From Blasia pusilla (taxonomy: Eukaryota): a stretch of DNA of 64,000 bases. The notes under the pieces are model-generated. The model was not told the DNA's origin, did not search any database, and saw nothing but the letters and a program-made list of their open reading frames with translations. Location: assembly GCA_050084515.1 (NCBI GenBank), contig CM114271.1, forward strand, positions 8,432,001 through 8,496,000, read 5' to 3'. The translations under genes were made by a program, and so were the position numbers. Below, piece after piece: positions 2,318 to 39,678 of the stretch; the first letter of the stretch is position 1; every line of letters starts with the position of its first letter.

Positions 2318-2339
2318 TACCCCCTCACTCAAATGTGAG

Positions 2340-4335: not shown

Positions 4336-4589
4336 AATGAGAAAATGCGCGCCCCCAGTCCGGCTACTATTGCGCCTAATAACCACCAGTCTTACGTAAC
4401 GGCCTCTTGGCACTCTTTGCGATCTAGTGCAAAGAACCCAAGGACAAAGAGCAAGATGGAAAAGGCAAGGAATGTGAGGACAAAGAAGGAAAAGACCCGA
4501 GATGAAGACCATCATCCATTTTCTTTCTTGAGTCTTCGTGAGTCCTGGGGGTCTTTTCTTCTACATTCTTGAAGTCTTTAGCACAGGTC

Positions 4590-5296
4590 TTACACCTTTG
4601 TTCCTTACCCCCTCCCTCAGTCTTCGGTCGGGTGTATGATATCTTTGCACATGCATGCCATTCACTCTTGTTGGCAATGCTTCTCCTCTTAATGTTTCCA
4701 ATTGTAAAGAACCATTTTCAAAAATCTCTAGGACTCGATAAAGTCCCATCCAATTTAACTTTACCTTCCTTGGGAATTTCAGGCGACGATTGTCATAGAG
4801 CAACACCAAATCTTCTCCTTGTATTGATTGTGGTCTTAGGTTCTTGTCATAGCGCTTCCTTCTTTGGATCTAGACAGTCTTTGTATGGCCAAGAGCAAGA
4901 TGTCTTCCCTCCTCCACATCTACCAAGTCCTCGTTCCTCTTTTCAATAACAACCAACTCTTCGTCGTTTCTCTCCTCTTCCAGAATTGGTAGGTGGGCAC
5001 ATCCTATTTGATTTGACCAAAAAGGATGGTGTGAACCTGGTAGTGACTTTCTCCACTGTTTGGTAGGCCCAGAGTGCAACAGGAATCTTGGTATCCCAGT
5101 CACATGGATAAGTGACAGTTAGGCCGTTCAAAATCCTGCAAATTAGCCCATTGGACTTCTCTGTCAACCCATTGGCTTTGGGATTGTAAGGTGTAGTCTT
5201 CCTATGCTTGATCAAGAAGTGATCCGTCAATACTTCGACCAACTTGTTGAGGAAATGGGTCCCTTGGTCCCTTACCAGCTCTAGTGGACAACCTTG
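4590..5296 (-). pseudogene. Gypsy integrase C-terminal fragment
   Basis: GCPLELVRDQGTHFLN...KTTPYNPKANGLTEKSNG core, plus GPY-like module KLNWMGLYRVLEIFENGSLQL. Confidence 0.9.
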
Positions 5297-8200
5297 TGCA
5301 TGCTTGAGTGGCAGGTGAGATAGATCACCCAATTTTGGCATGCTTGTGGTGACCTCCAAGATGAATGACACTCTCAACTCTACTTGTGTTCGGGCAAAGG
5401 GAATTTTCATGAATGTTCAATTGCTGCACATGGCAAATTTTTAAGTGATGAAGAATTATAGAATGAAAAAGTTCACAATACATGGGTACTGCAACCCCTG
5501 GGAATCTAACGAGTTAAAATATGTTGCAACCAGTGTGAATCCGATGGGTTGCAGAACATAAATATTTGCAAGAACATATGCCGAGACAAATTTTTCTAAC
5601 CTACCAAACCCAACAAGTTGAGAAGTTATGCAACACGTTGAAATCTGATAGGTTGCAACACCATACTCCCACATACCTTTTATGCTCCCAACAACCTTTC
5701 GGATTCAGACAGGTTGCAAAAACTTTTGAGCAAATTTTTTCAACTTGTTGAAATCCGACAAGTTACAGATTGATGCAACATTTCGGATTTTGACTTGTTT
5801 CCAATCACAAATATTTGCAACATGTCGGATTCAAACGGGTTGCAGCATCACATTTTGACCAAAATTTTGGTTGCAGACTAATGCAACATGTTTGTAATGT
5901 ACAAGTGTTTCTAATTTACAGTCATTTGCATAGTTCGATCCCCAAGAGGATCATTGTTGGATGAAAAGAGAGGGTAAAGTGATTATTATGTTGTAAAAGT
6001 AGTGTGGTTGATTATGTAATTCAAATGTAGTATTCCAGTAACATCTTCTGATCTTTCTTAGTACCCATGTTTTCTTCTTCAATTCTCTCTAGTGGAATTT
6101 AAAGCACGCTCAGGCAAATTGTTCTCTCGACATCTAGGAACCTCACAGAGATCTCAACAATAAGGTTGGCTTCTCCTACTTTCGGAACTCAATCCGTCTT
6201 GGCAGGCTACTCTTTGTTAAACAGATTTCATACAACTCCATGTTGATTATTCCATTGATGAGAAAGGTTTGTCTGATTTCACTCTTCACGCTATAGACCC
6301 AAAAAGACTATCCAAACGTAAGCATCGCACATCAGAATGAATGAATGAGTGGTTTATTATTCCATCAAGAACGGGAAGACTTCAAAGTGTATACGAGCTC
6401 GAGAGGGTACTACTCTCTTGCTCGGACCATTCCTACAACATAAGGACTTCATGAGCGAATGATAATTGTAGCTTCTGTCCTATTTCTTAAATATTCTCGA
6501 GAGTAGGAGCGTTTCCAAGATCCGAAGCGTTCTTGATGAAGTTGGTGTCTCTTCAATATTTGTAACTACCTAGATCTATGGTGTGCGTTCCTTTTTCGAT
6601 GATCCCTAGGAATCCGGAGAATAAAATTGTCCTAACTGTCTATCTGATACAAAGGGTTGCGCTTCTTCCTAGGCTAACTGTTTTAACTATGTGCCGGTTC
6701 GAATCACAATCATACTGAGCTTCGTTGCGTTGAATTTCCCGAGGACGAAGCTCTTCACTCTTCATTCTCTTCGTGCTTCGCTCTTCGTGCTTCGTTTAAG
6801 AGCAAAGTACTTCGTGTACAAAGCTTCGCTAAGTTGTGTTAAGCTTCGCTAAGCTTTTGCTTCTCCTCTAAGGCAAATCCTTGGTCTTCCATCTCTCTGC
6901 CTTGTCTTAGGAGCTTCGTGATTCACTTGAATCTTACTCGTTCTTCTCCATAATCGTATATAATAATCAAAACCATAATGTAGAAGAGTCTTTGTTCAAT
7001 AAAAAGATAAATTTCTTCCGAAGTACAAAATTGTGGGTATCACAATGTCCGATTCTGTTGGGTTTGAAAAAACAAAATTTTGCAACCTTTCGGATTCATA
7101 CGTGTTGCAACATCATATTTTGACCAAAATTTTCTTGCAGCCTGTTGGAATCTGGTAGATTGCAAACTGATGCAACCTGTTGGATTCCGACGTGTTCCCA
7201 AACACAAACACTTTAAGCCTATCCAATTCATATGGGTTGCAACCCGACAGAATCCAACAGGTTACAAGTTGGAAAGTAGAAAATATTGTACCCACCTGCC
7301 ATATAAAGTTTCCTCATTTCCTCATACCAAAAATCCACCAACTCAACCAAGAACACACTTCTTTATATTTCCCCTCAATTGCATGCTTCCGCTTTCACAC
7401 TTGAAACTCTTCTTAGCACTCCATGGCTCTTTTCAACGTTTTAGTAGAGCAACGTGATCCGTTCTCTTATTCTCCTTGATGCAAGATTTCATGTAGCAAG
7501 TCATGGACTGGTACCAATAGAAAGCATCCAACCTCTCTCTTTCCGGTTGAACTTCATCTCTCTAGAAATACCTTCTTGATAGCAATCCATCCTGGTTGTA
7601 CATTATCCTCGCCATGAACACGTAAATTTCAAGGGTGGCCTTTTTTTTTTCCTTCATCACCTCATGTAGGAGTAACCAACACATCTTCAAGATGCCAGCA
7701 TCTTCTGCCTTTACCTCACAGACACATATGGTTTTGAGTCCCTTCTCCACATGGTCGTAAACGTGTGCACCCATGGTCAACCATCCATTCAAAACCCTGT
7801 AGCAAATATCAAAGCTAGCCCAACTTCCAAATAGATCTTCTCCTTCCCTCCTTCTATCAATCAATTGAGGCCACTAGATGGCCTTATAGTAGATATTTTG
7901 AAGACATAATCTCTAGATCCCTCGGCTCCTTGGCCCATGAAATAAATGGAAACTTGGAGTTTTCTTTGATCCTCGTGATGGCATCCATCTTTGCGGTCTT
8001 CCCATCAAGTATTTTTATTTGCCGCAACAAGTTCCCGAAGCATTCAGATTAGCTAGAAAGGCAAGATTCCCCCCGAGTTGTGTCTCTTCAACTATTTTGA
8101 TCTCCCCTTGGCTAGGTATTTCCAAGAGTTGATTGCAAATTTTTGATGCGGTCTTCAATTTGATCACTTCATAATTGATCCCAGAGAGTTTTCTATACCT

Positions 8201-10028: not shown

Positions 10029-10790
10029 TGTCATGCGCCTACTCTCCTTGAACGTTAATATTTGTTGTTGCGGAAGTATGCGTTGAGTAGGACACGCTCT
10101 CAACGCTGATTTGCATCCAAACACGCACTCACGTTAGTTGGGTTTGGATCAATCAGAGATTCTTACTTGCTGAGTTCTCGACTCGACCTCTCATCAAGCT
10201 CAAGCTTCCTAGTTTCACGGTTTACAACATAGGCAAGTCTTTGAAGACTTGGAACAGACTTTCTCGTCGGTTGAGGAGCCTCAAATGGCGTTTGAATGTG
10301 TGGCAGTTCCAACTGTCCAATGGACATCCAATGGGTTCTTAACCGCAAGTCACGAAAATGAATCGCAGGTTGGAATCCAAGTGTGGGTGACAAAGTCCAC
10401 TCCCTTGGATAAGGTTTGGGTTTTGAGTTCCAACGCCAAACTCCCGTTCCATCCCGTACCCTTGAGATGCCGTTTGGTGCTAAAAGTGGGGTTTGTGTTC
10501 CAAGACTCCTTGGAGAGACTCCCCATTACTAGTACTTATGGGGATCCCCGCCCTCCCCCTAACTTTAGGGAAGGACAGTCGGGCCCCTCAGATTGGCCCT
10601 CAACCCGATTGCTCTCACAATAATTTTTGGCCAATATCTCGCTCTATACTTATGCGTTTGCTAAGATATTTAATGCATTGGAAGCGTCTTAAGATAAAAT
10701 TTCCAATGCTTTCTTAATTGTTCCAAAAAAATCCTGGGACTTAATGTTATGGTCCAAAACATAGTCAAAATCCCCAAACGAAGGTCGATC
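10029..10790. other. Unassigned non-coding insert, possibly an LTR remnant
   Basis: Begins with TG where it cuts a palindrome unit. No recognisable coding content and no second copy. Confidence 0.3.
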
Positions 10791-10794
10791 ATCG

Positions 10795-11285
10795 TGTTAA
10801 ACTGCCTGTGATCGACGACCTAGATCCAGAATAGAATCCACCAAAAAATGGGAGGGGCGCTCTACTCTTGCATACGCCCTTTGCAAAACCTCATGTGGCA
10901 CCAAGTTGGTCCACTAGAGACATGGGGGATGTGCACGTGAACCTTCACTCGCCACATCCAAAAATACTATTGGGCCGATCCATGCGCGCACCTTATGTGC
11001 ACTCGTCATTCACACACGAACTCGAATCGCCCAAAACTAGCATATTCTCAAAATATATGCTAGAAAATGGGATTGATGCTCTTGAAAGTGTTGCAAGATT
11101 TGCATCATCTCCCAAAACAACTTGGACCGAGAGTCAACTAACCGGCTATCTCATCCAGCACTCGATTGGCCCTGACATGACCAACTTGCAATGATCAAAT
11201 CTATGGTCACTACCTGCTCCAAGTCCTGCACACCCAACAATGAAATATCCCTCGGTAGGGAACTCTGGTATCCCTAAATGGCGGA
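10795..11285 (-). pseudogene. Second fragment of the retrotransposon C5-cytosine methyltransferase domain (motifs IV-VIII)
   Basis: Near-duplicate of about 17600-18010. Minus translation gives DLIIASWSCQGQS, LFWEMMQIL, AYIL(E)NM (1-nt frameshift) and DVASEGSRAHPPCL*WTN. Confidence 0.8.
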
Positions 11286-11324
11286 TGTAGACACAAGTCA
11301 GAATCTAGAACTACCTACTCTCTA

Positions 11325-11465
11325 TACATCTAGGACACATCCATTGTCCATGAGGAACCCTAGTGAGAGGTGGCGTCAAACATGCCATATGCCATCCTCT
11401 CGAACATCCATCACACACTAGCATCATGGTTGCACCACGGGCAAAACCACTCAACATACATAGCA
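11325..11465 (-). pseudogene. PHD finger at the integrase C-terminus
   Basis: CMLSGF...MLVCDGCSRGWHMACLTPPLTRVPHGQWMCPRC: C4HC3 pattern with one Cys mutated. Confidence 0.88.
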
Positions 11466-13341
11466 AGCCCGCAGGAACTACTGTTTAGCTCAGATCAACT
11501 GTACCATCAATGTTAGGGAGGTGACATGGGGCATAGTTACGCACATGGTCCTTCCAAACCATACCATTGCCTCCCTCCAATAAGAGAACACTAGATGGCA
11601 AAACCTCACGCACTCTCAAGATAGTGCGTCCTACAGTCACATCCAACGTCGTGGATGCCGTCTGTTGCAAGTAGACATAGTCTCCTTGATGAAACCTCCA
11701 GATAGTTGGTCAATAACCACCTCCCCGAAAAGTCGCATACCTCAACATATCGTGATGTTGCGCAATCGCCAAGTTCTCAAACGCCATGGGCATCACTCTT
11801 TGAAACAACTTTTCCTTCTAAGAACATGCTCACATCCATACATCATGGTTATCAAGGTTCAACACCTCACCAACATCTTGACGGATGGCTGCAGGTAAAT
11901 CCGGCTCTCAACCATAAAGTAACAAGTACGGTAAGAAAGACGTTAAGGATGTCTGCCTGCTGAATCTGTATCCCATCACCAACCACGGAAATTGGAGGTC
12001 CCAATCTCTTAAGTGACCTATTTGCAAGCCATGCTTGCGAAACCGTCTCTTCACCGTCTACACAACCCTCTCCGGTAGTTTATTCGCCTCAGGATGATCT
12101 CGCAAAGTGGTGCGGTGGTCGATTAGCCCCTCATCACACAAGGCCTGAAACTCCTTGCAAAACTCTGTACCATGGTCTATCAACATCTCAACTCGTGCAT
12201 TGTAATGACTAAGCACTCAATCTAGGAAGACATACACTACTCCCTCACTTGCTTTGCCAAGCAATGCAACCAACTCTATCCACTTCGAGAAGTGTTCGAC
12301 CATCACCAACATATAATGACTATGGCGCTCCATCAAAGGTAAAGGTCCTGCAAAATCCAAACTCCATCTAGAACCTAAACCCATGATCGGAAGTGGATGC
12401 AACTGTAGAGTTGAAGCATTGAACGATGCCCCAAACCGATCACAAACCATCCACCTGGCAACGAACTGTTGAACGTTACTCTATATGCCTCGCCACCAAT
12501 ATTGTATCTAGAGCAAGATGTACACCTGCTTCACTCCAAAATTACTCAAGTCCTCGTGGGCATGACGTACCAAACGTGCTCTCTATGAAAAATGAGGCAC
12601 TACACGTGCTCTACCATCCTCCCAAACTCGCAATACATGTGCCCCCTCCCACCGGAACCATATGGCTCGCTGTAGGATCCAATCTTGCTCTCTGGCACCC
12701 ACTGTGCTCGTGACGCTGCGAGTACGTAGGTACTCCAAAACTATTCCATCATCGTGAACATCTTGACCATCTATTGTCTCCTCAGCGGCCTCTAGATCCA
12801 AGGATTCTCCATCAGACCTCGCCATCGGAGTCTCATAAATCTGACTCTCCATAGCCAACAAGCCCAAATAAGCTAACGCGTGCCATCCTGATACCCATTC
12901 CTCATCATTCTCACCATGCCAAGGAGCTCCAGTCGCATCTTGCCGACTCAAGCATGGATTACGGCTCAAACCATCTGCATCATGGTTAAGTATCCTAGAT
13001 CTATGCACCATCTGGAAATCATACTTGCAACAAAAAAGCCCACCTCGCAAGCTTCTCTGTAAGCTTGTCCGACTCCATCAACCACTTAAGTGGCTGATGA
13101 TCAGTAATAATGGTAAAGGGGTTGCCGAATAAATAACACCTAAAATATGCGATAGCCCACACTACAACCAAGCACTCACCCTCATACAAGCTATACTTCG
13201 CCTCTACAGTATTTTTTGAGCGACTAGCGTAAGCCACCATGAACTCTCTACCCTCATCATCATGCTAGGTGAGCACGACTCTAAGCCCCAATATGCTCCA
13301 ATCGGTATGCAACTGGAAAGGACGCCCCCTGATCGGTCTCT

Positions 13342-14619
13342 TGTGATACCCACAATTTTGTACTTTTGAAGAAATATATCTTTATATTCAACAAAGACTT
13401 GTATATACATTATGATTTTGATTATTATCTATTATTATGGGAAGGAATGAGTAAGATTAAAGTGAATCACGAAGCTCCAAGGACAAGGAAGAGAGATAGA
13501 AAATCAAGGATTTGCCTAAGAGGAGAGGAGAATAAAATAACGAAGTCTCAAGACCCAGCAAGAAGCTTCGGAATGACAACAAAGCTCAACGAAGCTCTGT
13601 CTACGAAGTGCTTCGCGCTATAATGAAGCATAACGAAGCACGAAAAAGAAGAGGAAGAATTCCTTCGCTCTTGTACAAAGCACGAGGAATGAAGCACCTG
13701 GAACAAGAACAAAGAATGGAGCGCTTCGTCTTCAGATCATGAGAAAGAGCTTCGTCTTCAAGCCAAGCAAAAGAGGTCCAGACTTAGCACCAAAGCAAAG
13801 CTAAGATTGACAATGATTTGAAGCGACACATAGTTAGAATAGTTAGAATAGGAAAAGATGCAACCCTTTGTATCAAATTGGTAGTTATGACAATTTTTAT
13901 TTGCGGATTCATAGGGATCATAGGAAAAGCAAAGAGCATCATAGATCTAGGTAGTTACAAATGTTGAAGAGCCACCAGCTCCATAAAAAATGCTTCGAAT
14001 CTTTGGATCACTCCTCCTTCAAAGATTATTTAAGAAGCATAGAAGTAGCTATCATTATCATTCTCTTACGATGTCCTCATGCTGTAGGAATGGTCCGAGC
14101 CAGAGAGTAGTACCCTCTCGAGCTTGTATACACTTTGAAGCTTTCTCATTCTTGATGGAGTAGTAAAGCAATCATTCATTCATTCAGATGTGCGATGCTT
14201 ATGTCTGAGTATTCTTTTTGGGTCTGCAGAGTGAATCAGGCGAACCTTTCTCATCAATGGAATAATCAACATAAAGATTGTAGGAAATCTGTTTGACAGA
14301 GAGTAGCCTGCCGAAACGGATTGAGTTCCGACAGTAGGAGAAGCCAACTTTCATGTTGAGGTCTCTGTGAGGTTTCTTGATATCGAGAGGAAATCTACTT
14401 GAGCATGCTGTCAACTCCACTAGAGAGAATTGAGAAAAGAAACTTTGGTACTAAGAAAGATCGGAAGATATTGATAAGACATTGAATATAAATCATACAC
14501 ATTTAAATACAACTATTATAATAGAATTGTAATTTCGTACTCTCTTTTCATCAAACAATGATCCTCTTGGGGATCGAACTTATTAAACAACTGTAAAATA
14601 GAAACCCTTGTACATTACA
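13342..14619 (+). repeat. Solo LTR, Athila-like family
   Basis: TGTGATACCC...ACATTACA; flanks tctct/tctcc; inserted at the RT/RNase H junction. Confidence 0.92.
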
Positions 14620-15205
14620 TCTCCTCAATATGGGCACAGACATCAATCAATCCTTGAGCAGTTGAAATGCTCTCTCATGCTCATCCCCCTAGTTCCACTC
14701 ATGATCCACCTTGGTCAGCAAGGTCAGCGGCTGTGCAATCGAGCTGAAACCCTTGACGTATCGTAGATAGAAGGTCACCAATCCCATGAATGCACGAACT
14801 CGACTCACATCTGTAGGGCGTGGAATGCGTCAAATAGCCTCTACCTTTTTCAGCTACACACCAAGGCCCCCTGGGTATATTGTATGATCTAGGTACTCAA
14901 TCAAATCGTAGAAGAACTTGCACTTGCCTAGATGTAGCTTCAGCCCATGTAATTTCAATCGTCAAAACACCTCCTCTAGATGTCGCTCATGCTTCTCAAC
15001 CGTGGCGCTAAAGACTACGATGTCATCAATATAACACATAGCAAAATCTAGACTTGCCAAGATCTTATCCATGATCCTCTGAAACTCAGTCAAGGCATTC
15101 TTTAACCCAAATGGTAAGAATCGCCACTGGTACAAGCAATCCTTCCCGTGAGGATCGATGCCCCAAAATGCCGTCTAATGCTTGTCCTCCAATGTGATAA
15201 GGAGT

Positions 15206-16458
15206 TATAATGTAAAAGTGGTTTTAAAATTGATCTTTGTACAGTAATTTAATGAGTTCGATCCCCAAGAGGATCACGATTATGTGAAAAGAGAGGTCAA
15301 GATATCGTTTATCTTGCAATAGTTGTAATTAAGTGTGTACAATTTAGATTCAATCACTTATCAATGTCTTCAGATCTCTCTTAGTACCAAGATTTCTTTC
15401 CTCTATTCTCTCTAGTGGAGTTGAAATCACGCTCAGGTAGATCTTCACTCAACATCAAAGAACCTCGCAGAGACCTCAACAAGAACTTGGCTTCTCCTAC
15501 TTTCAGAACTCAATCCGTCTAGGTAGGCTACTCTCTGTTGAACAGATTTCTTACAACTCCGTGTTGATTATTCTATTGATGAAAAGGTTCTCCTGATTCC
15601 CTCTTTCCTCTACAAACCTAATAAGAATACTCATACATATGCATTGCACATCAGAATGAAGGAATGAGTACTTTACTACTCCATCAAGGATGAGAAAGCT
15701 TCAAAATTGTATACAAACACGAGAGGGTACTACTCTCTTGCTCGGACCATTCCTACAACATAAGGACTTTGTGAGAGAATGATGATGATAGCTACTTTCA
15801 TGCTTCTTAAATATTCTCCGGAGTAGGAGTGGTTCCAAGGATTCAAAGCGTTCTTGAGGAATCTGGTGTCTCTTCAACATTTGTAACTACCTAGATCTAT
15901 GGTACTCTTTTCTTTTCCTATGATCCCTGTGAATCCGCTCAGCATAACGGTACTAACTTCCTATATGATACAAAAAATTGTGTCTCTTCCTAGTCTAACT
16001 GTTCTATCAGTATGCCGCTTGAAATCACTTTGAGTTTTAGCTTCGCTTCGTTGCGAAGTCTAGACCTCTTTTGCTTCCCTTGAGGATGAAGCGGTCCATT
16101 CTTCGCTTTGGTTTCAAGTGCTTCGTGCTTTGCTAGAGAGCGAAGTACTTTTTCCTCTTCTTCTTCATCATGCTTCGTTCAAGAGCAAAGCATTTCATGA
16201 ACAAGTTCTGAAGAGGGCTTCGTTGACTTTTCCAAGCTTTGCGCTGAGTCTTTAGACTTCGTTACTGCATTTCCCTCTCCTCTAAGGCAAATCCTTGATC
16301 TTCCACCTCTTTGCCTTGTCCTAGGAGCTTTGCGATCTCTTTCAATATTACTCATTCTTCTACTACACAAACATAATATCCAAAATCATTATGTATACAC
16401 AAGTTTTCTTCGAATAAAAAGCTCTAATCTTCAAAAGTACAAAATTGCAGGTATCGCA
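15206..16458 (-). repeat. Solo LTR, Athila-like family
   Basis: tataatgt...ggtatcgca (eroded termini); flanks ggagt/gcagt; splits the RT at DLRVGYHQL. Confidence 0.9.
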
Positions 16459-17249
16459 GCAGTTGATGGTATCCGACTCGAAGATCTAATGAACCAAAGA
16501 TCTTTGCATGCCCAATAGCATCAAAGATCTCCTCAGGGCTGGGTATGGCATACCTATCGGACTTTGTCTACCAATTGATAGGTCAATATATAATCTCCAC
16601 ACATCCGCCTATCCGTCGAGATGCCATGCACATCCTTCTTGACCGGCATTACAATGGCAAATGCATACTCTCCATACGACATCTGCACTAGTCATGCTCC
16701 AAGCAAGTTCTGGCTCCTACTATGAATCAGAGCCCTCTCTATGTCACTGTACTTATAGGGTTGTCGGAAGATTCGCGTGTTGCTCGACAACTCAATGCGG
16801 ATGCTTGGACCCTTCAGCGTATCCAAATCATGCATACTAAATGCAAAAAAACTCCTATAACTCCTAAGGAACTTATGTATCAGGAATCCCTTTCCTCCTG
16901 TCAACTTAGGGCCCATATCTAGCTCCCAAGTCTCCATCGTGACTACCGTAGGACTCTCCGGCATGAGTATCGGTGGTTGCTATGGTGCAACCCCAACTTA
17001 GAGAGTAGAACTCGGATGCTCCCCTGCAGCCAACTGCAAACTGTGATCTCCTCCATGTGGAGTATCCGTAATCATGCTTGATGTTGTGGCTATCATCTCA
17101 TGGCGTGCTTGCAAAACACCCCAAGAAGTGCAAGGTTTTCTCTCCCGTTCACCCTTGGTATGTCGATCTCCTTGGGTCTCGCCCCCAACCACCACCTCAA
17201 TTGTCTCGCGTAGGCATGGGGCTCACCAACTCAACACTTGAAATGTGTC

Positions 17250-18200
17250 GTAACCTCAAACGACGTTGCTCAACTACTCCTAAGCTGAAAATCCATATCA
17301 AGCAATTCAGGTCCATCGCATGACCCAAGACATAACATGGTGATGCCTCTAATAGTGACGGTACTCCCCTCACTCTTGAGGGGAATCCCATCGCTCGCTC
17401 TCGCTCATCGGCGTTGGGCTCCACCAATCGTTGTACCTGGTCATCCCAAACCGAGCCTGACCCAACCTCCTTGAATGCATAGGAAGCGGGAAAACTCACC
17501 AAGGTGGGAAATCCTGCTCGTGGCAAGCCAATCCTATTGACCACAATCAACGTAGGTCGATCATTGTATCGTACTGCATGTGATCGATGACATGGATCCA
17601 GAATAGAATCCACCAACAAATGGGAGGGGGTTCCACTCTCGCATTCGCCCTCCACAAAACCTCATGTGGCACCAAGTTGGTCCACCAAAGACACAGGCAA
17701 TGTGCACGTGAATCTACACTTTCCGCATCCAACAACACTACTGAGCCGATCCATACGCATACCTGATGTGCACTCGTCACCATTCGAAACCTCGAATCGT
17801 CCGAAATTGGCATCATCTCCCAAAGTCGCAAGATCCGCATCATCTCCCAAAAAAACCTGGACTAAGAGTCAACTAATCGGCTACCTCATCCAACACTCGA
17901 TTGGCCCTGACATGGCCAACCTGCAATGACCAAATTTATGGTCCCTACCCGCTCCAAGTCGTGCGCTCCCAACAATGAAATGTCCCTTGGTAGGGAACTC
18001 TGGTATCCTTGGACGGAGGACGCAAACAATAAGTTGGGAAATCAAGGATGTAACTCTGCCACCGGGTGAAGTGAAGCGTACCTCGCAACATCATCAATCT
18101 CAACTTACAGGTAGTGCTGCATGCGCACTTTTGCTTGCAAAAGAGCAGCTAAGCCAGTGTTGATCCCTCCAAAGAGATCCAACATGTGAATACCCTCCTT
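17250..18200 (-). pseudogene. C5-cytosine DNA methyltransferase domain (Dcm/DNMT3-like) inside Gypsy pol
   Basis: Hand translation shows the motifs in order: I LDLFGGINTGL (about 18150-18182); II YL*VEIDD; IV NLVIAGWPCQG (GWPCQG at 17904-17921); VIII DAESVDSRAHCLCLWWTN; IX ERERAMGFP; X VLGHAMD. In-frame stops are present. Confidence 0.88.
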
Positions 18201-19002
18201 TGGGATGCACCACACAATCGGGTGGTGTCCAAAAGGGTCATAGTAGCACTCTTGGATACCTTGGGTTCCTATGACCCGTCCTGCTTTGATGCAAATATCT
18301 CACTTCAAGCCGTCTTCAGGTGCTCATCAGATAAACGTCCGAACTCCTCACTCGAGCCCCATGGCGGCACCTCTCCTCCACGAAATGATGCGGCTACCAT
18401 AACACTCCTCTCCCTAGAGGTGTCAGGCATGGGGTGGTCCTCTGCATGGATATGCCCCTCAATCAAATCAGAAGGCCACGTGATGGCGTTGCTAAATGTT
18501 GCTAAAGTCGCCGTCTCTCCTGGATGTCGCTCGATCACTCCACCCGTGAATTGAACGGGTAATGAATAAAGTTGTCCATCACCGGACTACCATCCTGGTC
18601 TGTAGGACACTAACTCCTCCCAAGAATCCTTGGAAAATCCCATCGGGAACAACACTGCTCCCCCAACCAAGACGACGCAAGACTCTACGTTAGTCACGAT
18701 CGCCTTGGATCGCACCACAGACTCATCTGTAGGATGTCTTAGGAAAATCCTTACCACGACCTCATGTCAGGTGACAAACTATGTGGTACTCACTCCACCC
18801 AAGGATGTTTGTATCCTAAATGGATAACACTCCACATCGTTCCTCGTCAAGCCCAAACCCGGCCTTCCCCAACATCATGGGTTGCGCTCCTAAATCTAAC
18901 AAGACACGTTGTGGATAAAAAAATCTACCTCCTAGACTTAGCAACTCGAAGATCTCTCCCTGGTTGTCTAGCAACACAACACTTGGAGCAACCATGGCAC
19001 AC

Positions 19003-20170
19003 TATCGTATAGTTAATCATATGCTATGTCAACTCTTCTATCATTAAGTGTTAGAGAGAGTTTTATTAGTATTAAGTAAATTAGCCTAGGAAAATGAAAT
19101 TCCCATGTTTAAACCTCTTTAGGGTGACTAATTTATGCGGGCCCAACTTTAGGAAAAGAGATAATAAATAAAAGATAGGATTAGAAAAGTAAAATAGTGG
19201 GGTTGGTGTTTTAATGAAACAAAAGAAAAAATAGTCTTGGTTGGTGGCTAGGGTTGGTGGGGTAGTTTGGAAGATATAAAAGGAGCAAAAGAGGATATTT
19301 TGGAAGAGTTAAGAGGTTATCTACTAATGTCAAAATATGATTGCTAAGCATTGAGAGGAAGCCATGTGGCACAAGATAAGATTAGCCCTATTTCGTACTC
19401 TTATGGATCCCTTGTGAGTATATAAAGAGGAGGAACCTTCAAGGGTTCATCATCTTCTACTTCATATCTTCAGTCTCTCGTGTTACTCTTGAGTGTATGG
19501 CTTTGGGATTGCTTGCTCTTCCCATGAGAATGGATTACCCCTCTCGAGAGAGTAACTTGACCTTGGTGTACTCTTCAAGAGTTTTCTAGAGTGTGGTATG
19601 TGTGGAGATGAGAGACTTGTCACCTTAGATGAGTTTAGTCATACTAGAAATAGATAATAGTTTGGCTTTTTATTTTCCCAGTAAGAGTGGATTACCTCTC
19701 TTGGGAGAGCAACTCCACCAAATCTCATTCTAAAGGAGAGTATAGAATGTTTGTCAAGTATGGATAGGGGTGGAGCACGAGTTGTGCCGGATGGTTCACT
19801 CGTTATCTAGTTTATCACTTTGAGGACGCATTCATGAACCAAGTCATGCAATCTCCAACTCCGGTGATTCTTCCTATAGTCACGTACGGAAGGACATGAG
19901 ATTGCACTTTGTGTGTCCTTATATAGATATCCACGGACGTCAATAGGCATGCTCAATTAGGGTTTAACACTAGTTGTACTATTTTCTTTGTGTACAAACG
20001 TAAAGTAGTTTATAGGGATTTCATAGTTAAGAATTTTGGGATTCCATATTATGAAGAAGTGATTGCCTCGGCACTACCATTCGTGATTCGTGTCGTGAGA
20101 GATTGGAGAGTTTACATGATAATTCTGTACTGAAAAAGAAAAAAATTCTTATAGAGTTTGACTTGCATCA
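19003..20170. repeat. Probable LTR of an unrelated family
   Basis: AT-rich 1.17-kb non-coding block with TATA (tataaagagg near 19421), ending in CA. It interrupts the gag/protease frame, which appears to resume for about 30 nt after 20170. No clean TSD. Confidence 0.45.
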
Positions 20171-20240
20171 ACCACGTCTATTGCAGCTAGAAGGTCCGCC
20201 CTAACTCAAAGAAAGGTTTTGGACACGACACGGGACATAC

Positions 20241-21690
20241 ATGAAGACCTTTTTGGGAATAGCAAAACCTCTCACAGATTGTACTCCCAGGTTTTCCAAC
20301 ACAACATGGACTGAGAGATTGGATAAGGAGTTCAACCAAGTCAAAGAGATCCTCTCGCATGAACCAATTCTGAACCTCCCGGAGTACGACCAACCGTTCG
20401 AGGTGCACACTCATGCTAGTGATTTCGCGATTGCAGGAATATTGGTACAAAAAGGGAGACTTGTAGCATACGAGAGCAAGAACTTAACAACACTGAAAGG
20501 AGATGGCCCACTCATGAGAAAGAGTTGTTCGCAGTGGTTCATTGTTTGAGGAAGTGGCGTCACTATTTGGGACTTCACAAGACTCCTGTATTCATTGATA
20601 ACATTTCGCTCAAGTATTTTGAGACCCATGATCACATGACACCAAAGCAACTCCGATTGGTATGATACCTTGGCATTGATGAATGTGGAGCTAATCCACA
20701 AGCCAGGGAAAGACAATGTTATTCCAGATGCGTTAAGTCACAGGGATGAGCATATGCCATTGACAACACAAGTCTTGAGAGCAATGTTCCCTAGTGAAAC
20801 AGACATGGAAAGAAGGATTCGTGAAGGATACATGAAGGATGCGCAAGCAAGTGAGTACCTAAGGAAGTTGAAACGCGGCGAGAAGGTGGCGAATCTGAGT
20901 TTGAGGCATGGTTTGCTAAGGTTTAAGCATAGCACAATCTATGTGGGTCAAGGCAAGCTACGGACCAAAGTGTTTGTGGAATGTCATGACGGACCTTTGG
21001 CAAGACACAAAGGGGAGAAATCTACTCTTGCTATTTTGGCCAAGAGGTTCTTCTCGTCTAACATGTAGGAAGATGTTGCTCAATATGTGAAGATTTGCGT
21101 GACCTCTCAAGGAAACAGAGTTTCTTATGCAAAGAAGCAAGGCTTACTTCATCCTTTGCCAATCTCGAAGGGATCCTTGCAAAGCATTAGCATGGATTTC
21201 ATTACAAGTCTTTCGGAATCTGAGGGATACAACGCCATATTTGTGATAGTTGATCGGTTTAGCAAGTTCGGGAGGTTTGTGCCGACGAGAGATTCTACGA
21301 CGGCCTATACAACTTCCTGACTATTCCTCGATAGCTGGTAGCAAGCTTATGGATTGCCTAGGAGCATTGTGTCCAATCGCAATCCGAAGTTTACCAATGC
21401 CTTTTGGAAATATCGATTCATGAGGTTCAAGACCAAACTCCACTTTAGTACGGCCTTCCATCCTCAAACGAATGGGCAAATGGAAAAAGTAAAATTGGTC
21501 GTAAACTAGTACTTAAGGAATTATGTGAGTGTAGACCATAAGATTGGGCAAAGTGGCTAAGTATGGTTGAGTATTGTTACAACTCCACCAAGCATTCTGC
21601 AACTGAATAATCTTCATTTTTTCTGGCTTATCAAAGAGAAACGGAACGGCCTGTTGACGCGGCCCTTTCAAGGGGTGCTACACCAACACA
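20241..21690 (+). pseudogene. Chromovirus-like Gypsy pol fragment (RT end, RNase H, integrase)
   Basis: PFEVHTHASDFAIAGILVQ..VAYESK; HKPGKDNVIPDALS; CHDGPLARH; SISMDFITSL..AIFVIVDRFSK. Confidence 0.9.
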
Positions 21691-21695
21691 CCTAG

Positions 21696-22629
21696 TGCAT
21701 GACCTCTATGTCCACCCATACCGGAAACTCGCTCTCCTGCCCTCTCTGGCCCTCGGTTCGGACGTAACTCAGGGTGTAGGCTGAAACACCTGCCACATGT
21801 GTGACGATACCTCTAGCAATAGTCACATTGATAACCTCCTGGTGTAGCACCATCTCCTCTATCGTGCGCATACACATTGCTACACAACATATATTGCTGT
21901 CACCGAACACACACACAAACACGCATGATCCCATGCTAACTCATGGCATCCAAACAACGAGACAAGAAATACCAAAATATTTCCAATTAAAGTAAGATCC
22001 AATCTCTCTTTACACCATCTCACGCCATAGCTCTCAAAGGTGTGCACTCCCTCTCATGTCAAACCAAACCCATTCTCCTAATGAGAGGCTTGGGTTACAC
22101 TCACAAAGCAAGGGACCATAACTCCTCCGCCTCATGCCAAGAGGTTCAATAAAGAGAGAATGAGCTATCAAGCTCTCTCTCCTTGAGGTATACCTCTCCC
22201 CTCTCCCAAGCTCTCTCCATGGTAACCTATTCTTCCAAGTCACCTCCTTGGCTCTTGACCTGATGTAGGAGGTGAAGGGCCACTTACCAAAAATATAAAG
22301 TCGATCATATACTCAAAATGGTATTTAAATAAAATAGTAAGTTGCTTAATATGGCTCCAAATGAGCCGAAATGAAGGGGAAACCTGCTCTCTCAGGTTTC
22401 CCGGGGCCTCAGCAGGTTATCCTCAACCTACTAAGCTTGTCCTCCACTACTCACGAAGGTGCTCTACTAGATCTTACCGATCTATCCTAAAAGACGTGAC
22501 AGTTTTCGTGTGCATATACATTGCTATACAACATATATCCTTGTCACCAAACACACATACAAACACACACGATCCCATGCTAACTCATGGCATCCAAACA
22601 ACGAGACAAGAAGTACCAAAATATCTCCA
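21696..22629 (-). repeat. Putative 3' LTR of the PHD-bearing Gypsy, with an internal ~125-bp duplication
   Basis: Follows the PHD stop and a purine tract (aggggggcga, 22631-22640 on minus). 21862-21985 is duplicated at about 22507-22628. The left boundary is uncertain. Confidence 0.4.
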
Positions 22630-22817
22630 ATCGCCCCCCTATGTGGTGGTTAGGTCCCTCTAACTCCAGATAGCCATCTATCCCTACCTACCACGACATA
22701 CATCTCTAGGACGCTAAGAGTAGAAAGGTCGGGTGCTCATGTGGCCCCATCGTTAGTCGCCTTCCTGTCATCCATGTCACAGAAAAAGTCAGAATCAAAA
22801 TCTACCTAGTATCTCCT

Positions 22818-23172
22818 CTATGTACATCTGGGACACATCCATCGTTCCCAAGGAACCCTAGTGAGAGGTGGCGTCAGACATGCTATATGCCAACCTCTCG
22901 AACATCCATCACAGACTAGCATCGTGGCCGCACCATGGGCAAAACCACACAACATACAACGCAAGCCTACATGAACTACTGCTAAGCTTGAATCTAATGT
23001 ACCATCAATGTTAGGAAGGTGACATGGCGCACAATTACGCACATGGTCCTTCCATACCATACCATACCATACCATCGCGTCTCTCCAGCAAGAGAACACC
23101 GGATGGCAAAACATCACGCATTCTCAGGATAGTGCGCCTTGTAGTCACATCCAATGTCGTCGGTGCCGTCAC
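22818..23172 (-). pseudogene. Second copy of the integrase C-terminus plus PHD finger
   Basis: WKDHVRNCAPCHLP...CMLCGF...LVCDGCSRGWHIACLTPPLTRVPWERWMCPRC, an intact C4HC3. Confidence 0.9.
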
Positions 23173-29421: not shown

Positions 29422-29509
29422 TCATTGGAACCATTGTACCAATAGCGACGTTGGCCAATATGGAACTTTGCACATGGGAAATGTGCAACCAGTCCCCCTC
29501 ATCAGACGT

Positions 29510-30220
29510 GCAACCCGTTGGAGACCGACGGGTTGCACGCTTCCCTCATCTTAGGGAAACAAGGCGAGGTACCCGGGCAACCCGTTGGTCTCTGACGGGT
29601 TGCACGCTTCCCTTGTCTTGAGGTAACAAGGCGAGGTACCCATGCAACCCGTCGGAGACCGATGGGTTGCATGCTTCCCTCATCCTTGGGTAACAAGGCG
29701 AGGTACCCGGGCAATCTGTTGCAGACCGACGGGTTGCCTGCTTCCCTCGTCCGGGGGTGACAAAGCATGGTCTTGAGGCAACCCGTCAACCTCCCACGGG
29801 TTACAAGGTCTACCATGGGTTGGACAGTTCCCACAATATGGAAAAATTGTGGCACGCTCTCCGAAAAACTCATCTACCCCTCACAATTTGCACGATTCAC
29901 TGGACAAGAGAAATTGACGCGAGATCCTCCCACAACTCGGTTACCTCCAAAAGGGAAAGCGAGGTGAGGTACCTTTTCAACCCGTCGCACTCCCCAACAG
30001 GTTTCTATAGGAAATCCATGCAAGGTCTCGTGGATCTCGACTCCAATCAGACAGGTCACACAGGCAGGGGGTACCGACTGACAACTACGTTCAAGCTAAC
30101 GGACTGCGACGGGTTGCAAGTTGCACTCGGACTCCAACAGAAGATGGTACTCCGTGGCTTTGCAACCCATGTGTATGAGTCCCAAAATTTGCAACCCGTC
30201 GGACTCCGACAGATTGCAAC
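29510..30220. repeat. Intergenic palindrome array with a 67-bp tandem unit
   Basis: Palindrome starts at 29510, 29577, 29644, 29711 and 29778, with scattered further copies to about 30220. Confidence 0.92.
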
Positions 30221-30856: not shown

Positions 30857-32022
30857 TGTAATGTCTAAGTGTTTCTTATTTACATTCAATTGTAGAGTTC
30901 GATCCCCAAGAGGATCATTGTTGGATGAAAAGAGAGTATAAAGTGATGATTATGTTGTAAAAGTGTAATTGATTATGTAATTCAAATGTAGTATTCCAGT
31001 AACATCTTCCGATCCTTTCTAGTACCTATGTTTTCTTCTTCAATTCTCTCGAGTGGAGTTTAAAGTACGCTCAGGCAATTTGTTCTCTCGATATCTCGGA
31101 ACCTCACAGAGACCTCAAGAATAAAGCTGGCTTCTCCTACTTTCGGAACTCAATCCGTCGGGGCAGGTTACTCTCTGTCAAACAGATTTCATACAACTTT
31201 ATGTTGATTATTCCATTGATGAGAAAGGTTACTTTGATTCACTCTTCACTCAGTGAGACCCAAAAGAATATTTAGACATAAGCATCGCACATCAGAATGA
31301 ATGAATGAATGCTTTACTACTCCATCAAGAATTGGAAGACTTCAAAGTATATGCAAGCTCGAGAGGGTACAACTCTCTTGCTCGGACCATTCCTACAGCA
31401 TAAGAACTTCATGAGCGAATGATGATAATAGCTTCTGTCCTGTTTCTTAAATATTCTCGAGAGGAGGAGCGTTTCTATGATCCGAAGCGTTCTCGAAGAA
31501 GTTGGTGTCTCTTCAATATTTGTAACTACCTAGATCTATGGTTCTCTTAGCTTTTCGTACGATCCCTATGAATCCGCGGTACAAAACTGTTCTAACTACC
31601 AATTTGATACAAAGGGTCGCGCCCTTTCCTAGTCTAATTGTTTAAACTATGTGTCGGTTCGAATCACAATCATGCTGAGCTTCGCTGCGCTAAATTTCCG
31701 GAGGACGAAATTCTTCATTCTCTTCGTGCTTCGTGCTTCGCTCAAGAGCGAAGTACCTCGTATACAGAGCTTCGTTGAGCTTCGTTAGACTTTGTTAAGC
31801 TTCGCTAAGCTTCGCTTTGATCCTTTATACTTCTTTACAACTTTTGATTCTCCTCTAAAGCAAATCCTTGATCTTCCATCTCTCTGCCTTGTCTTAGGAG
31901 CTTGGTGACTCACTTATTCTTCTTCATAATAATAGATAATCATAATCAAAATCATAATATACAAGAGTCTTTGTTGAATAAAAAGATAAATTCTTCAAGA
32001 TTACAAAATTGTGGGTATCACA
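30857..32022 (-). repeat. 3' LTR
   Basis: TG...CA ends, adjacent to PPT gagggagggggta. Confidence 0.95.
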
Positions 32023-33870: not shown

Positions 33871-34254
33871 CGAGAATGGGTGTGGAGTCTTCGCGAGGCA
33901 TGTTGCTAGGTCGATCTCGATGGACACCCGCTTTGGCTCGCTCGCAACCGTGGTGATCCCGTCCATGAAAATACCCGCTTGGTTACGCCGGACTGCTCTT
34001 ATAGTCCGTTCCCCCCTGTCCGTTCTTGGTCGTGGCGCCGAGGCTATAACACGAAGGTGGGCGCTTCGCGTCTTTGCCACGCTCCCCCTTCCTCACTTCG
34101 TGCGCTTCGCTGCTTCACGAAGCATGGGATGTCTGGAACCTCGGTGCTTCGTTGCTTCGTGAAGCACGGTATATCTTGAACCGTAGCCGCGACTTTGCGG
34201 CTTCGGTGCGTTCGCCTACCCCCTTCCTCATGTTTCAGTTATCCTCAGGTTCGG

Positions 34255-35540: not shown

Positions 35541-35583
35541 AAAGGTATCATGACAGATTGGGTGAGGTCTGCGTTTGTCATCC

Positions 35584-36330
35584 TCAACGGGAAAGAAAAT
35601 CGGCATTGGTATGCACCTTGCCGCACGGGTCAACATCGAATGTGAATTCTTGTAGCAACAAGATCCACCGTGCAATGCGTCCTGACAGGTCGGCTTTCAC
35701 CATTAAGGGTCTGAGTGCAAAATGATCCACATGAAAGACAAATTCGTACCCTAATAAATAGTGTCGGAACTTTTTACACGAGAAGACCATGCCTAACGCC
35801 TCTCGTTCGGTGGTTGTATATTTCTGCTCTGCCGCCGATAGTTGTCGTCCGGCGTAGTAAATTGGAAAATCATGTTTGTGCTCATCCCATTGGCTGAGCA
35901 CTACTCCAATGGCAAATGAGGATGTGTCCACATACACATGGAAGGGTTTGGATAGTCCTGGCACACTCGGATTTTTCCCATTTGTTTTTTAGGCACAATT
36001 ACAATGGGCGACACCCACTCGCTGCTTAACACCGGATAGATTATTCCTGCCTCGAGACGCTGATCGATCTCGTCCTTGACTAACAATGAGTACTTTGGAT
36101 TCAGTCGATATTGTCGCATTCCTACCGGGACCGCCCCTTCTTTAAGATCAATTCGGTGTTCACCATATTGTGCGGGAATACCTCTCATTTCATCCATAGA
36201 GTATGCAAAGACATCCAAATACTCAAACAGTAGTCTTTTATATTTTATAAGTGTGGTGGGAGACAAATCCGCCGAAAGGCGTAGAGGCTTTTGATCTGCA
36301 ATATTGACCTGGACGTAGTTCTGCTCCTGA
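35584..36330 (-). pseudogene. RT N-terminus fused directly to RNase H
   Basis: SEWVSPIVIVPKKQMGKIRVCQDY runs directly into SKPFHVYVDTSSFAIG...TTEREALG. No YxDD segment. Confidence 0.9.
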
Positions 36331-39661: not shown

Positions 39662-39678
39662 AAAAGTCTTCGACTATA

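Follow-up and report, generated by a model that had tools for sequence, protein, structure and literature searches.

The window, by which we mean the whole 64,000-nucleotide stretch of Blasia pusilla DNA analysed here, carries on its minus strand, from 19001 to 11326, a single Ty3/gypsy pol composed of protease (PR), C5-cytosine methyltransferase (DNMT), reverse transcriptase (RT), RNase H (RH), integrase (INT) and a C-terminal PHD finger. We are confident that the interval 19040-11326 represents a dead, 5'-truncated Ty3/gypsy copy of the Gypsy-DNMT3 kind. Pfam placed the RT, RNase H, integrase, PHD finger and DNMT on one common strand, and PF00078, PF17917/PF17919, PF17921 and PF00665 were found in gypsy Pol order on the minus strand by Pfam and tblastn. 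An aspartic protease remnant at 19001-18858 was located by tblastn with the Marchantia proteins P0164, P0162 and P0168 and by motif coordinates; its active-site region reads LLDLGAQP (18902-18879), with D-L-G as opposed to D-S-G in relatives. The C-terminal part of the protease and a linker follow at 18856-18299 (tblastn, 41% identity to bryophyte relatives), where a Pfam scan of 18305-18586 returned no family. The decayed DNMT3-like C5-cytosine methyltransferase domain occupies 18236-17206 (PF00145, tblastn and motifs). Beyond it lie an N-terminal part of the RT with in-frame stops at 16949-16460 (tblastn with P0168 and P0153; frame reading), a C-terminal part at 15190-14620 with YIDD at 15033-15007 (PF00078, E 3.6e-13 and 1.1e-18; tblastn, 65% identity to P0168) and the RNase H at 13342-13028 (PF17917, E 3.9e-25 and 2.3e-28; 72% identity to P0168). 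The integrase at 12588-12106 consists of an H2C2 zinc domain (12588-12433) and a catalytic core (12372-12106; PF17921, E 2e-5, and PF00665, E 5.2e-7), in coordinates converted from the residues of a frame read starting at 19998. Its SH3-like C-terminal part leads in the same continuous frame into the PHD finger (11700-11326; PF00628, E 5.4e-8).

The 5' truncation lies just upstream of the protease, at ~19040, and loose contig ends were seen at 19041 in X1-X3, which belong to a set of four DNA runs of one organism from two studies (X1-X4) that contain this stretch and from which contigs at least 80% alike were compared. Residues 1-605 of Marchantia P0164, which cover gag, found nothing in the window by tblastn, and a repeat search revealed no direct repeats flanking 19040-11297 that could represent LTRs.

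The sequence-only reading had listed methyltransferase motifs I, II, IV, VIII, IX and X at this site. All were recovered on the minus strand in canonical, unpermuted order from I to X: LDLFGGINTG (motif I, 18182-18153), VEID (II, 18104-18093), GWPCQG (IV, 17921-17904), a degenerate HCLCLWWTN (VIII, 17702-17676), ERERAMGFP (IX, 17406-17380) and LGHAMDLN (X, 17328-17305). Motif I, involved in SAM binding, and the PCQ of motif IV with the catalytic Cys are both present in the expected order, while motif X aligns as GH in the window and GQ in Marchantia versus the canonical GN. The extent given in that reading, 17250-18200, had the location right and was slightly too narrow, as tblastn similarity runs from ~18236 to ~17206. 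The PF00145 search that it had proposed came out above the curated cut-off of 22 bits: a read-through of 18299-17547, with stops read as X, scored 24.3 bits (E 2.6e-5), rising to 41.1 bits (E 2e-10) with a second fragment, 11297-10777, in the same frame read; relatives score 27-58 bits. Among the single stop-to-stop fragments (16 in the Pfam scan), none of the six DNMT pieces matched PF00145, implying that the domain is detectable only when read through and bearing out the earlier remark that the track of open reading frames shows only fragments of it. A phmmer search with the window DNMT against 1.84 billion representatives gave 583 matches at E<=1e-3, 173 at E<=1e-10 and a best E of 2.6e-43. 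Judged by these sequence comparisons, the match of the window domain to C5-methyltransferases is far beyond chance.

By profile, and by the predicted fold of a relative, the domain is DNMT3-like, an assignment based on ranking against solved, mostly mammalian, structures. A profile of nine relatives matched 29 DNMT3A/3B/3C chains (E 3e-14 to 1.5e-11), followed outside DNMT3 by M.HaeIII (1.3e-5), DNMT2 (2e-4) and DRM2 (6.6e-3). With an AF2 model of the relative P0013 (pLDDT 95.5), Foldseek ranked DNMT3A/B/C at positions 1-48 among the matches listed, the best at E 2.7e-20. A model of P0162 (726 aa, 9-row alignment) was discarded at a pLDDT of 44.3. The best profile and fold matches, the catalytic domains of animal DNMT3A/3B, have in common with the family the motif order I-X, the AHRxR..W.N form of motif VIII and a short TRD. 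In contrast, identity is ~22-24%, the domain described here is part of a retroelement polyprotein without PWWP or ADD, and bryophyte copies have GQ or GH in motif X. A tree placement inside the DNMT3 clade is reported for the members from Klebsormidium nitens only (de Mendoza et al. 2018, PMC5890265).

The DNMT sits between the protease motif LLDLGAQP upstream and the two RT parts downstream, an arrangement that the sequence-only reading had proposed and that motif coordinates and colinearity with Marchantia P0168 both support. In tblastn, this protein aligned with the window at 41-72% identity in segments corresponding to PR (19001-18858), linker (18856-18299), DNMT (18194-17290), RT (16949-16590 and 15141-14620) and RH (13342-13028). 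One might suspect a one-off capture or a chance juxtaposition, that is, a host DNMT3 gene or pseudogene interrupted by or lying beside an unrelated gypsy, or a single copy that has picked up a host fragment. The copy is indeed too broken for any junction-spanning ORF, and the odd placement of a second DNMT fragment after the PHD finger indicates that rearrangement has occurred here. We nevertheless consider such an origin highly improbable. The window is colinear with single-ORF relatives across both the PR/DNMT and the DNMT/RT junction (tblastn), and the PR-DNMT-RT arrangement is found within single ORFs of Marchantia P0168, Closterium P0188 and P0190, K. nitens P0197, P0153 and P0158. Furthermore, in a DNMT tree of 107 rows, a set that holds no host DNMT3, the window falls inside a clade of 13 rows (branch value 100) together with retroelement-borne domains of Marchantia and Sphagnum. 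Finally, the DNMT segment itself is multi-copy in the four DNA runs, which also argues against a one-off capture. All 30 bins of 10500-19500 were covered (10,454 to 96,598 contigs, X1-X4, at least 80% alike). The four bins spanning the DNMT (17122-18325) reached a depth of 1104-2255 in X1 versus ~1700-6600 for the RT/RNase H/integrase bins. This depth is a sum to which related gypsy families contribute and should not be read as copy number; the contigs behind it are short (~150-680 bases), with none seen to bridge PR-DNMT-RT in the host itself.

That this is a family of elements sharing the domain position, as opposed to an isolated locus, is also apparent from the proteins retrieved. RT, RNase H or integrase domains were present in 24 of the 27 long phmmer matches scanned, and 58 of 204 proteins matching our own DNMT HMM also matched RT, with the DNMT upstream of it in 24 and downstream in 34. 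The named close relatives among 19 matches were from Marchantia polymorpha (12), Sphagnum (1) and Calypogeia (1); a second search, with 32 matches, yielded 21 from Closterium and one each from K. nitens (KFL_013780020) and Marchantia. The order is CCHC-PR-DNMT-RT-RH-INT in one ORF of Closterium P0188, PR-DNMT-RT in one ORF of Closterium P0190, DNMT-RT-RH in Marchantia P0168 and CCHC-DNMT-RT-RH-INT, each time in one ORF, in P0153 and P0158, while K. nitens P0197 (KFL_013780020) has CCHC at 297, PR at 598-691 and DNMT at 833-971. Homologous and colinear single-ORF relatives are known from Klebsormidium, Closterium, Marchantia, Sphagnum and Calypogeia. Intact relatives encode a one-ORF Gag-Pol with CCHC gag, aspartic protease, DNMT3-like methyltransferase, RT, RNase H and integrase, the last ending, in the lineage of the window element, in a PHD finger. 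A multi-copy Gypsy-DNMT3 family in bryophytes looks new, as we found no published description; the earlier suggestion that the element may be unreported in this lineage holds as far as our literature searches reach.

The window copy itself is a pseudogene, a fossil that cannot methylate anything. Four in-frame stops interrupt the stretch 18299-17547 of its first DNMT domain, which also changes frame near 17646-17625. A gap of ~14 residues accompanies the loss of ENV, and motif VIII has CxC for RxR, at positions where the aligned relatives keep ILENV and HRxRLWWTN. No ORF spans the domain junctions. Comparison of X1 contigs with the window gave 252 A>G and 272 T>C against 95 C>T and 98 G>A differences, the window having A/T where other copies have G/C. 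CpG observed/expected in the window DNMT is 0.70 and TpG/CpA 1.32, versus 0.90 and 1.01 in a neighbouring, better-preserved gypsy, the integrase of which is closest to that of Riccia sorocarpa (61-66%). As far as transposon proteins can tell, this points to a liverwort or a near bryophyte relative as the probable host.

Two insertions of 1.26 kb split the RT region. The first, an interspersed repeat on the plus strand at 15200-16458 (self-blastn, repeat families), is missing from other copies, as contig joints run from 15199/15200 to 16459 in X2, X3 and X4. The second, a minus-strand copy in opposite orientation at 13337-14619 (blastn, 77.5% to 15237-16458), lies between RT and RNase H and is skipped by contig joints from 13335/13336 to 14619/14620 in X1, X2 and X4. 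The ends of these inserts show no obvious terminal inverted repeats. Next to the PHD finger lies the second DNMT fragment (11297-10777, minus strand; tblastn E 4.7e-42; blastn 78% to 17549-18008), which extends from before motif IV (SWSCQG, 11186-11169) into the TRD, is cut at both ends and retains ENV as YFENM (11055-11041) in a different frame. The sequence-only reading had overlooked both this fragment and the integrase PHD finger. We considered a genuine INT-PHD-DNMT order but dropped it, since the fragment begins in the middle of the domain exactly where INT-PHD similarity stops (11295/11297), which looks like a rearrangement junction.

The PHD finger (11433-11326, minus strand, with CDGCSRGWH at 11415-11389) is in continuous frame with the integrase C terminus. 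The window contains a second copy of integrase C terminus plus PHD on the minus strand at 23170-22786 (PHD ~22958-22824; PF00628, E 3.7e-8; repeat families D5 and D17); by blastn, its DNA shares 82% identity with 11295-11662. Among solved structures, the finger best matches CHD4 PHD2, KDM5A/B PHD1, PHF12, ATXR5, PHF21A, AIRE and UHRF1, PHD fingers that recognize H3K4 or H3R2 in the unmodified state. Over the frame from the integrase core onwards, Pfam detected PF00628 and no chromodomain. The arrangement is reminiscent of chromoviruses, in which the integrase likewise ends in a small chromatin-reader module that is presumed to tether integration to a chromatin state; there, however, the module is a chromodomain, and chromoviruses have no methyltransferase. 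No PHD was detected at E<=1e-4 in the full-length relatives P0153 and P0158, and this window is the only place where we have seen a PHD finger together with the PR-DNMT-RT order. As a feature of the integrase, the PHD finger looks new, since we found no published description of it.

The sequence-only reading had pointed to DNMT-carrying retrotransposons as a precedent, and rightly so. The closest, KnitGypsy-Dnmt3 of K. nitens (de Mendoza et al. 2018, Nat Commun, PMC5890265), is a gypsy with an unrearranged DNMT3-like domain in its Pol ORF, and P0197, with the order CCHC-PR-DNMT, can be aligned with the domain of the window (E 3e-19). The two differ in that identity is 26%, K. nitens lies outside the bryophyte clade in the DNMT tree and its host is a charophyte alga, as opposed to a bryophyte land plant here. 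Moreover, the window element has an integrase PHD finger, while the main text on KnitGypsy never uses the term PHD; the Fig. 4 legend there describes the KnitGypsy terminal repeats as a DIRS-like arrangement. SymbioDIRS-Dnmt3 and SymbioLINE-Dnmt of Symbiodinium are also retrotransposon-borne C5 methyltransferases, the DIRS type being DNMT3-derived and located in Pol, according to the same paper; in contrast to the gypsy type, they have a tyrosine recombinase (DIRS) or LINE backbone and a host in a different kingdom. EpiLTRs (bioRxiv 10.64898/2026.05.21.726589) are LTR retrotransposons in which a DNA methyltransferase similarly occurs together with a chromatin reader. As described there, however, they carry Dam, a DNMT4-related DNMT and a chromodomain in Cymbomonas and Euglena and are explicitly distinguished from 'streptophytes (Gypsy-DNMT3)'.

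A further group, for which our literature search found no published description, has the order RT-RH-DNMT-INT-PHD and comprises the 'pol' of Scenedesmus sp. PABB004 (KAF8056149.1, our P0064) and many metagenome proteins. These gypsies share with the window element a homologous DNMT (E 1e-11 to 1e-21), gypsy RT, RNase H and integrase and, in 13 of 27 long matches, an integrase C-terminal PHD; in these, however, the DNMT follows RNase H and precedes integrase, whereas the window element has it after protease and before RT. The DNMT positions of streptophytes (PR-DNMT-RT) and of Scenedesmus and many other records (RT-RH-DNMT-INT-PHD) might reflect two independent captures of a DNMT3 and not one capture followed by relocation, in which case the window element and the second group would have nothing but the gypsy backbone in common. 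Consistent with this, a single branch (value 99) separates the architectures in the DNMT tree (21 versus 30 labelled rows of 107), they are also separated in the RT-RH tree (97 and 99), and recurrent capture has been documented (de Mendoza et al. 2018, PMC5890265). On the other hand, the DNMTs of both classes match each other far better than any solved DNMT, and the window element combines the first order with the integrase-PHD of the second class. In addition, both classes fall in the RT-RH tree on one side of a branch (value 100) that sets them apart from 45 non-DNMT gypsies, a biased outgroup in that all are relatives of one other gypsy lineage. The branch leading to the window RT piece in this tree has 4.35 changes per column; the piece is probably misaligned, and its placement was ignored. 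On balance, we see two captures as a real but minority possibility.

In intact members, the methyltransferase would be made within Pol and would travel with RT and integrase, which would make newly synthesized cDNA of the element itself, or the DNA flanking the site of integration, the likeliest substrate. We infer that this DNA would be methylated de novo using SAM. The PHD finger, which resembles readers of unmethylated H3K4, most likely would, by analogy with the chromodomain of chromoviruses, tether the integration complex to non-promoter chromatin. The DNMT might also be real and yet have been selected for a role other than methylation of the element's cDNA, such as self-restraint in which new insertions are marked for silencing, to the benefit of the host, RNA methylation, or a noncatalytic function of Pol in DNA binding or oligomerization. 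RNA methylation and slowed transposition are among the options listed by the authors of de Mendoza et al. 2018 (PMC5890265), who saw no DNA methylation by the KnitGypsy-Dnmt3 domain in yeast but, because human DNMT3B failed there as well, drew no conclusion from it. Motif X of the bryophyte clade departs from GN. However, PCQ with the catalytic Cys, FGG for SAM binding, ENV and RxR have been kept among relatives that are just 26-55% identical to the window domain, a pattern that catalysis would require. FGG, PCQ and ENV are invariant in nine of nine relatives, and RxR, ERERAMG and G(Q/N)AMD are kept in an alignment with relatives. The modelled fold also best matches DNA-bound DNMT3A/B, and SymbioDIRS-Dnmt3 domains do methylate CG de novo, an activity proven among these elements for the DIRS domains only (PMC5890265). 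Such a different role seems less likely to us, and methylation of the element's own cDNA or insertion site remains our preferred reading for intact members.

In conclusion, retrotransposons that encode their hosts' own silencing enzyme are rare, and Klebsormidium has provided the sole gypsy example in print. The apparent multi-copy family in bryophytes moves the question to Marchantia polymorpha, where the catalytic motifs are kept in at least 12 gene models and where a methylome and genetic tools already exist. It also qualifies a published claim (Morozov et al. 2019, PMC6338049) that land plants lack transposons encoding a methylase. Being a functionless fossil, the window copy has its value as a pointer to this family, and the PHD finger on its integrase suggests how such elements may choose or mark chromatin. 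Taken together, we tentatively propose that Gypsy-DNMT3 elements may have persisted beyond charophytes as multi-copy elements in bryophytes (Marchantia, Calypogeia, Sphagnum and the present host), with an integrase ending in a PHD finger of the unmethylated-H3K4 type, so that reader and writer would be split across Pol in a manner resembling animal DNMT3, with its ADD and methyltransferase. Following this proposal, a genetically tractable land plant would possess, in its intact copies, a source of de novo cytosine methylation encoded by a transposon, and the sister RT-RH-DNMT-INT-PHD elements would belong with them to one ancient green-lineage gypsy clade that has carried and reshuffled this toolkit.

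The observation of a C5-cytosine methyltransferase (DNMT) domain within a gypsy pol is confirmed. A three-frame reading of 19400-11800, together with Pfam scans and tblastn with relatives, yields a single colinear Ty3/gypsy pol on the minus strand: protease (PR; 19001-18858, with LLDLGAQP at 18902-18879), a linker of no known family (18856-18299), the DNMT (18236-17206), reverse transcriptase (RT; 16949-16460 and 15190-14620, with YIDD at 15033-15007), RNase H (RH; 13342-13028), the integrase (INT) zinc domain and core (12588-12106) and, after an SH3-like integrase C-terminus and in the frame shared with the integrase, a PHD finger (11433-11326). The sequence-only reading had placed the DNMT between protease and RT, at 17250-18200, and Pfam and tblastn bear out this arrangement. 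Every motif that it had named was also recovered on the minus strand, ordered I to X: motif I LDLFGGINTG (18182-18153), II VEID (18104-18093), IV GWPCQG (17921-17904), VIII, which reads HCLCLWWTN (17702-17676), IX ERERAMGFP (17406-17380), and X LGHAMDLN (17328-17305). Its interpretation is supported. The anatomy, homology and motif conservation of the element are thereby established.

Pfam gave no match on single stop-to-stop fragments of the DNMT. Reading through 18299-17547 with the four stops set to X gave a match to PF00145, the proposed family, at 24.3 bits (E 2.6e-5; cut-off 22), which rose to 41.1 bits when the second DNMT fragment joined the same frame read. Among 1.84 billion cluster representatives, phmmer found 583 proteins at E<=1e-3 and 173 at E<=1e-10 (best 2.6e-43), and the two DNMT halves, which lie in different frames, are colinear with the same relatives (e.g., residues 866-1099 and then 1084-1220 of Marchantia P0164). 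As to type, a nine-relative profile searched against solved structures retrieved 29 DNMT3A/3B/3C sequences (E 3.4e-14 to 1.5e-11), followed by M.HaeIII (1.3e-5), 4onj ("DNA methyltransferase"; 1.6e-5), DNMT2 (2e-4), and DRM2 (6.6e-3). In the relatives, motif VIII reads GSRAHRxRLWWTNL and can be aligned with a DNMT3A stretch. A structure model of Marchantia P0162 was set aside (pLDDT 44.3). The model of P0013, a protein 35% identical to the window read-through that adjoins the bryophyte clade in the DNMT tree, reached pLDDT 95.5 (325 residues, 35-row alignment); with this predicted structure as the Foldseek query, ranks 1 to 48 listed were all DNMT3A/B/C catalytic domains (best E 2.7e-20, TM 0.70/0.79).

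The DNMT domain is part of the element family. A one-off insertion had been considered, and single proteins of Marchantia (P0168), Closterium (P0188, P0190), and K. nitens (P0197, KFL_013780020) carry the domain at the same position. RT, RNase H, or integrase domains accompany it in 24 of 27 long DNMT matches scanned and a PHD finger in 13 of 27. Two domain orders occur. The window element is of the CCHC-PR-DNMT-RT-RH-INT type, as are the database proteins P0033/P0153 and P0051/P0158, Closterium P0048, P0181, P0188, and P0190, K. nitens P0197 (CCHC 297, PR 598-691, DNMT 833-971), and Marchantia P0168 (DNMT 460, RT 833, RH 997); the order RT-RH-DNMT-INT-PHD is found in the Scenedesmus "pol" P0064 and many further database records. 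With our own HMMs, RT was detected in 58 of 204 DNMT-matching proteins, the DNMT lying upstream of it in 24 and downstream in 34. The closest named relatives (19 matches) are 12 Marchantia polymorpha proteins (38 to 53% identity), 1 from Sphagnum troendelagicum, and 1 from Calypogeia fissa, and the RT and RNase H are 65 to 72% identical to those of P0168. A search seeded with the Closterium domain gave 21 Closterium, 1 K. nitens (KFL_013780020), and 1 Marchantia protein among 32 matches; the K. nitens protein aligns with the window DNMT at E 3e-19 (26% identity). A small clade (P0045, P0060, P0142) combines a DNMT3-like domain with a Dam adenine methyltransferase domain (in P0045, DNMT 633-769 and Dam 1221-1292), a pairing that recalls DIRS-type dual-methylase elements.

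In a quick IQ-TREE analysis of 107 DNMT domains, computed without host DNMT3, DRM, CMT, or DNMT1 sequences, excluding rows below 280 profile positions and representing the window by its N-terminal read-through only, the window falls in a clade of 13 (support 100) with nine Marchantia rows, Sphagnum, and two other rows, and one branch (99) parts the two domain orders. The same split recurs in an RT-RH tree of 81 rows (97 and 99), in which every DNMT-bearing element lies on one side of a branch (100) and 45 DNMT-free gypsies lie opposite. Because this outgroup was drawn from relatives of one other gypsy lineage only (the first 45 of 76 rows), the grouping of DNMT-bearing gypsies apart from DNMT-free ones is suggestive rather than decisive.

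The window copy is a fossil. Neither gag nor LTRs were found for it by repeat search or tblastn with relatives, and the likeness of other copies ends near 19041 (loose contig ends, three runs). The DNMT carries four in-frame stops and changes frame near 17646-17625; its ENV motif has been lost in a gap of ~14 residues, and RxR has become CxC. Two copies of a 1.26-kb repeat (16458-15200 and 14619-13337) split the element, and contigs of other copies omit exactly both stretches. Differences from other copies are mostly A/T in the window where the others have G/C (window to other copies in sequencing run X1, A>G 252 and T>C 272 versus C>T 95 and G>A 98). CpG observed/expected is 0.70 and TpG/CpA 1.32 in the DNMT, versus 0.90 and 1.01 in a neighboring, better-preserved gypsy. 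The low CpG and raised TpG/CpA are the signature of methylated-cytosine deamination.

Contigs at >=80% likeness from four DNA runs (one organism; two studies with no more than three samples in all) covered all 30 bins of 10500-19500, each run contributing 10,454 to 96,598 contigs. Although these contigs are short and none was shown to span the PR-DNMT-RT junctions, the repetition of the DNMT segment is clear. Summed depth, which pools related families and is not copy number, was 1104 to 2255 in the four DNMT bins (17122-18325) of X1 versus ~1700 to 6600 in its RT/RNase H/integrase bins.

A second DNMT fragment (10777-11297, minus strand) extends from motif IV to the TRD with 78% DNA identity to 17549-18008. 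It begins mid-domain ~30 bases past the PHD finger, precisely where the similarity of a second INT-PHD copy ends (11295/11297), is cut again at 10777, and may stem either from a nested insertion or from tandem copies with a deletion between them. That second copy of the integrase C-terminus and PHD finger (22786-23170, minus strand; 82% to 11295-11662) holds an intact 101-aa open reading frame (ORF; 22818-23123), with no recognizable integrase core or DNMT adjoining.

Several other elements share the window. A ~1.2-kb repeat is present in at least five copies, 73 to 80% alike and in both orientations (5893-7045, 13337-14619, 15200-16458, 30857-32022, and 39678-40836), the second and third of these being the two that split the DNMT element; no clear terminal inverted repeats were found, and because their ends resemble TG...CA, these may be solo LTRs. 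The better-preserved gypsy (32370-39300, minus strand), which is without a DNMT, comprises gag (38210-38872), CCHC and protease (within 36681-37754), RNase H (35584-35988), and an integrase (34531-35547) with its nearest named matches in Riccia sorocarpa (61 to 66%); a 259-aa ORF at the expected RT site (35901-36680) and a 450-aa ORF past the integrase (32370-33722) gave no Pfam match at cut-offs as loose as E 0.5. Together with the likeness of the DNMT element's RT and RNase H to Marchantia P0168, the Riccia matches make a liverwort, or a plant close to the liverworts, the probable host. A third gypsy fragment with RNase H and integrase (20205-21540, plus strand) immediately precedes the DNMT element at its truncated end. 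Three consecutive long ORFs at 55684-59606 (minus strand; 485, 508, and 293 aa) matched no Pfam family; the 508-aa ORF is nearest MULE/ZSWIM RNaseH-like transposase clusters by ESM Atlas features (score 0.96, 178 shared), a kinship we regard as a lead only. There are also a tandem array with a 67-base period (29509-29776) and two 126-base direct repeats, 644 bases apart and 90% alike (21862-21987 and 22506-22631).

The best PHD matches of the intact ORF 22818-23123 are CHD4 PHD2, KDM5A/5B PHD1, PHF12, ATXR5, PHF21A, KAT6A, DPF3, UHRF1, and AIRE (E 5e-13 to 1e-7). These fingers recognize H3K4 or H3R2 in the unmodified state. In intact members the DNMT is presumably synthesized in the Pol polyprotein and co-packaged with RT and integrase. 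Its most economical role would be to methylate the cDNA of the element, or its integration neighborhood, de novo, with the PHD finger tethering the complex to H3K4-unmethylated chromatin. Alternatively, the DNMT may serve self-restraint, methylate RNA, or act noncatalytically; the related KnitGypsy-Dnmt3 domain showed no activity in yeast, where human DNMT3B also failed, according to de Mendoza et al. 2018 (PMC5890265).

That paper describes KnitGypsy-Dnmt3 as under purifying selection, and the charophyte precedent named in the sequence-only reading is indeed published; "Marchantia," "liverwort," and "PHD" have 0 occurrences in its main text. In the portions covered of PMC12344493 (2025) and of a 2026 preprint (10.64898/2026.05.21.726589), the streptophyte case enters only by citation of de Mendoza et al. 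2018. Morozov et al. 2019 (PMC6338049) hold that land plants lack methylase-encoding transposons, a statement that the present element qualifies. The suspicion that the element was unreported in this lineage agrees with the literature covered, in which we found no paper on DNMT-bearing gypsies in bryophytes or on integrase-PHD gypsies; subscription journals and supplements lay largely outside this coverage, and mention elsewhere is possible. With this element, present here as a dead copy, the published Gypsy-DNMT3 kind gains a bryophyte member. While the concept is already in print, the presence of such elements in land plants, their integrase-PHD feature, and their likely tractability in Marchantia appear not to have been reported previously.
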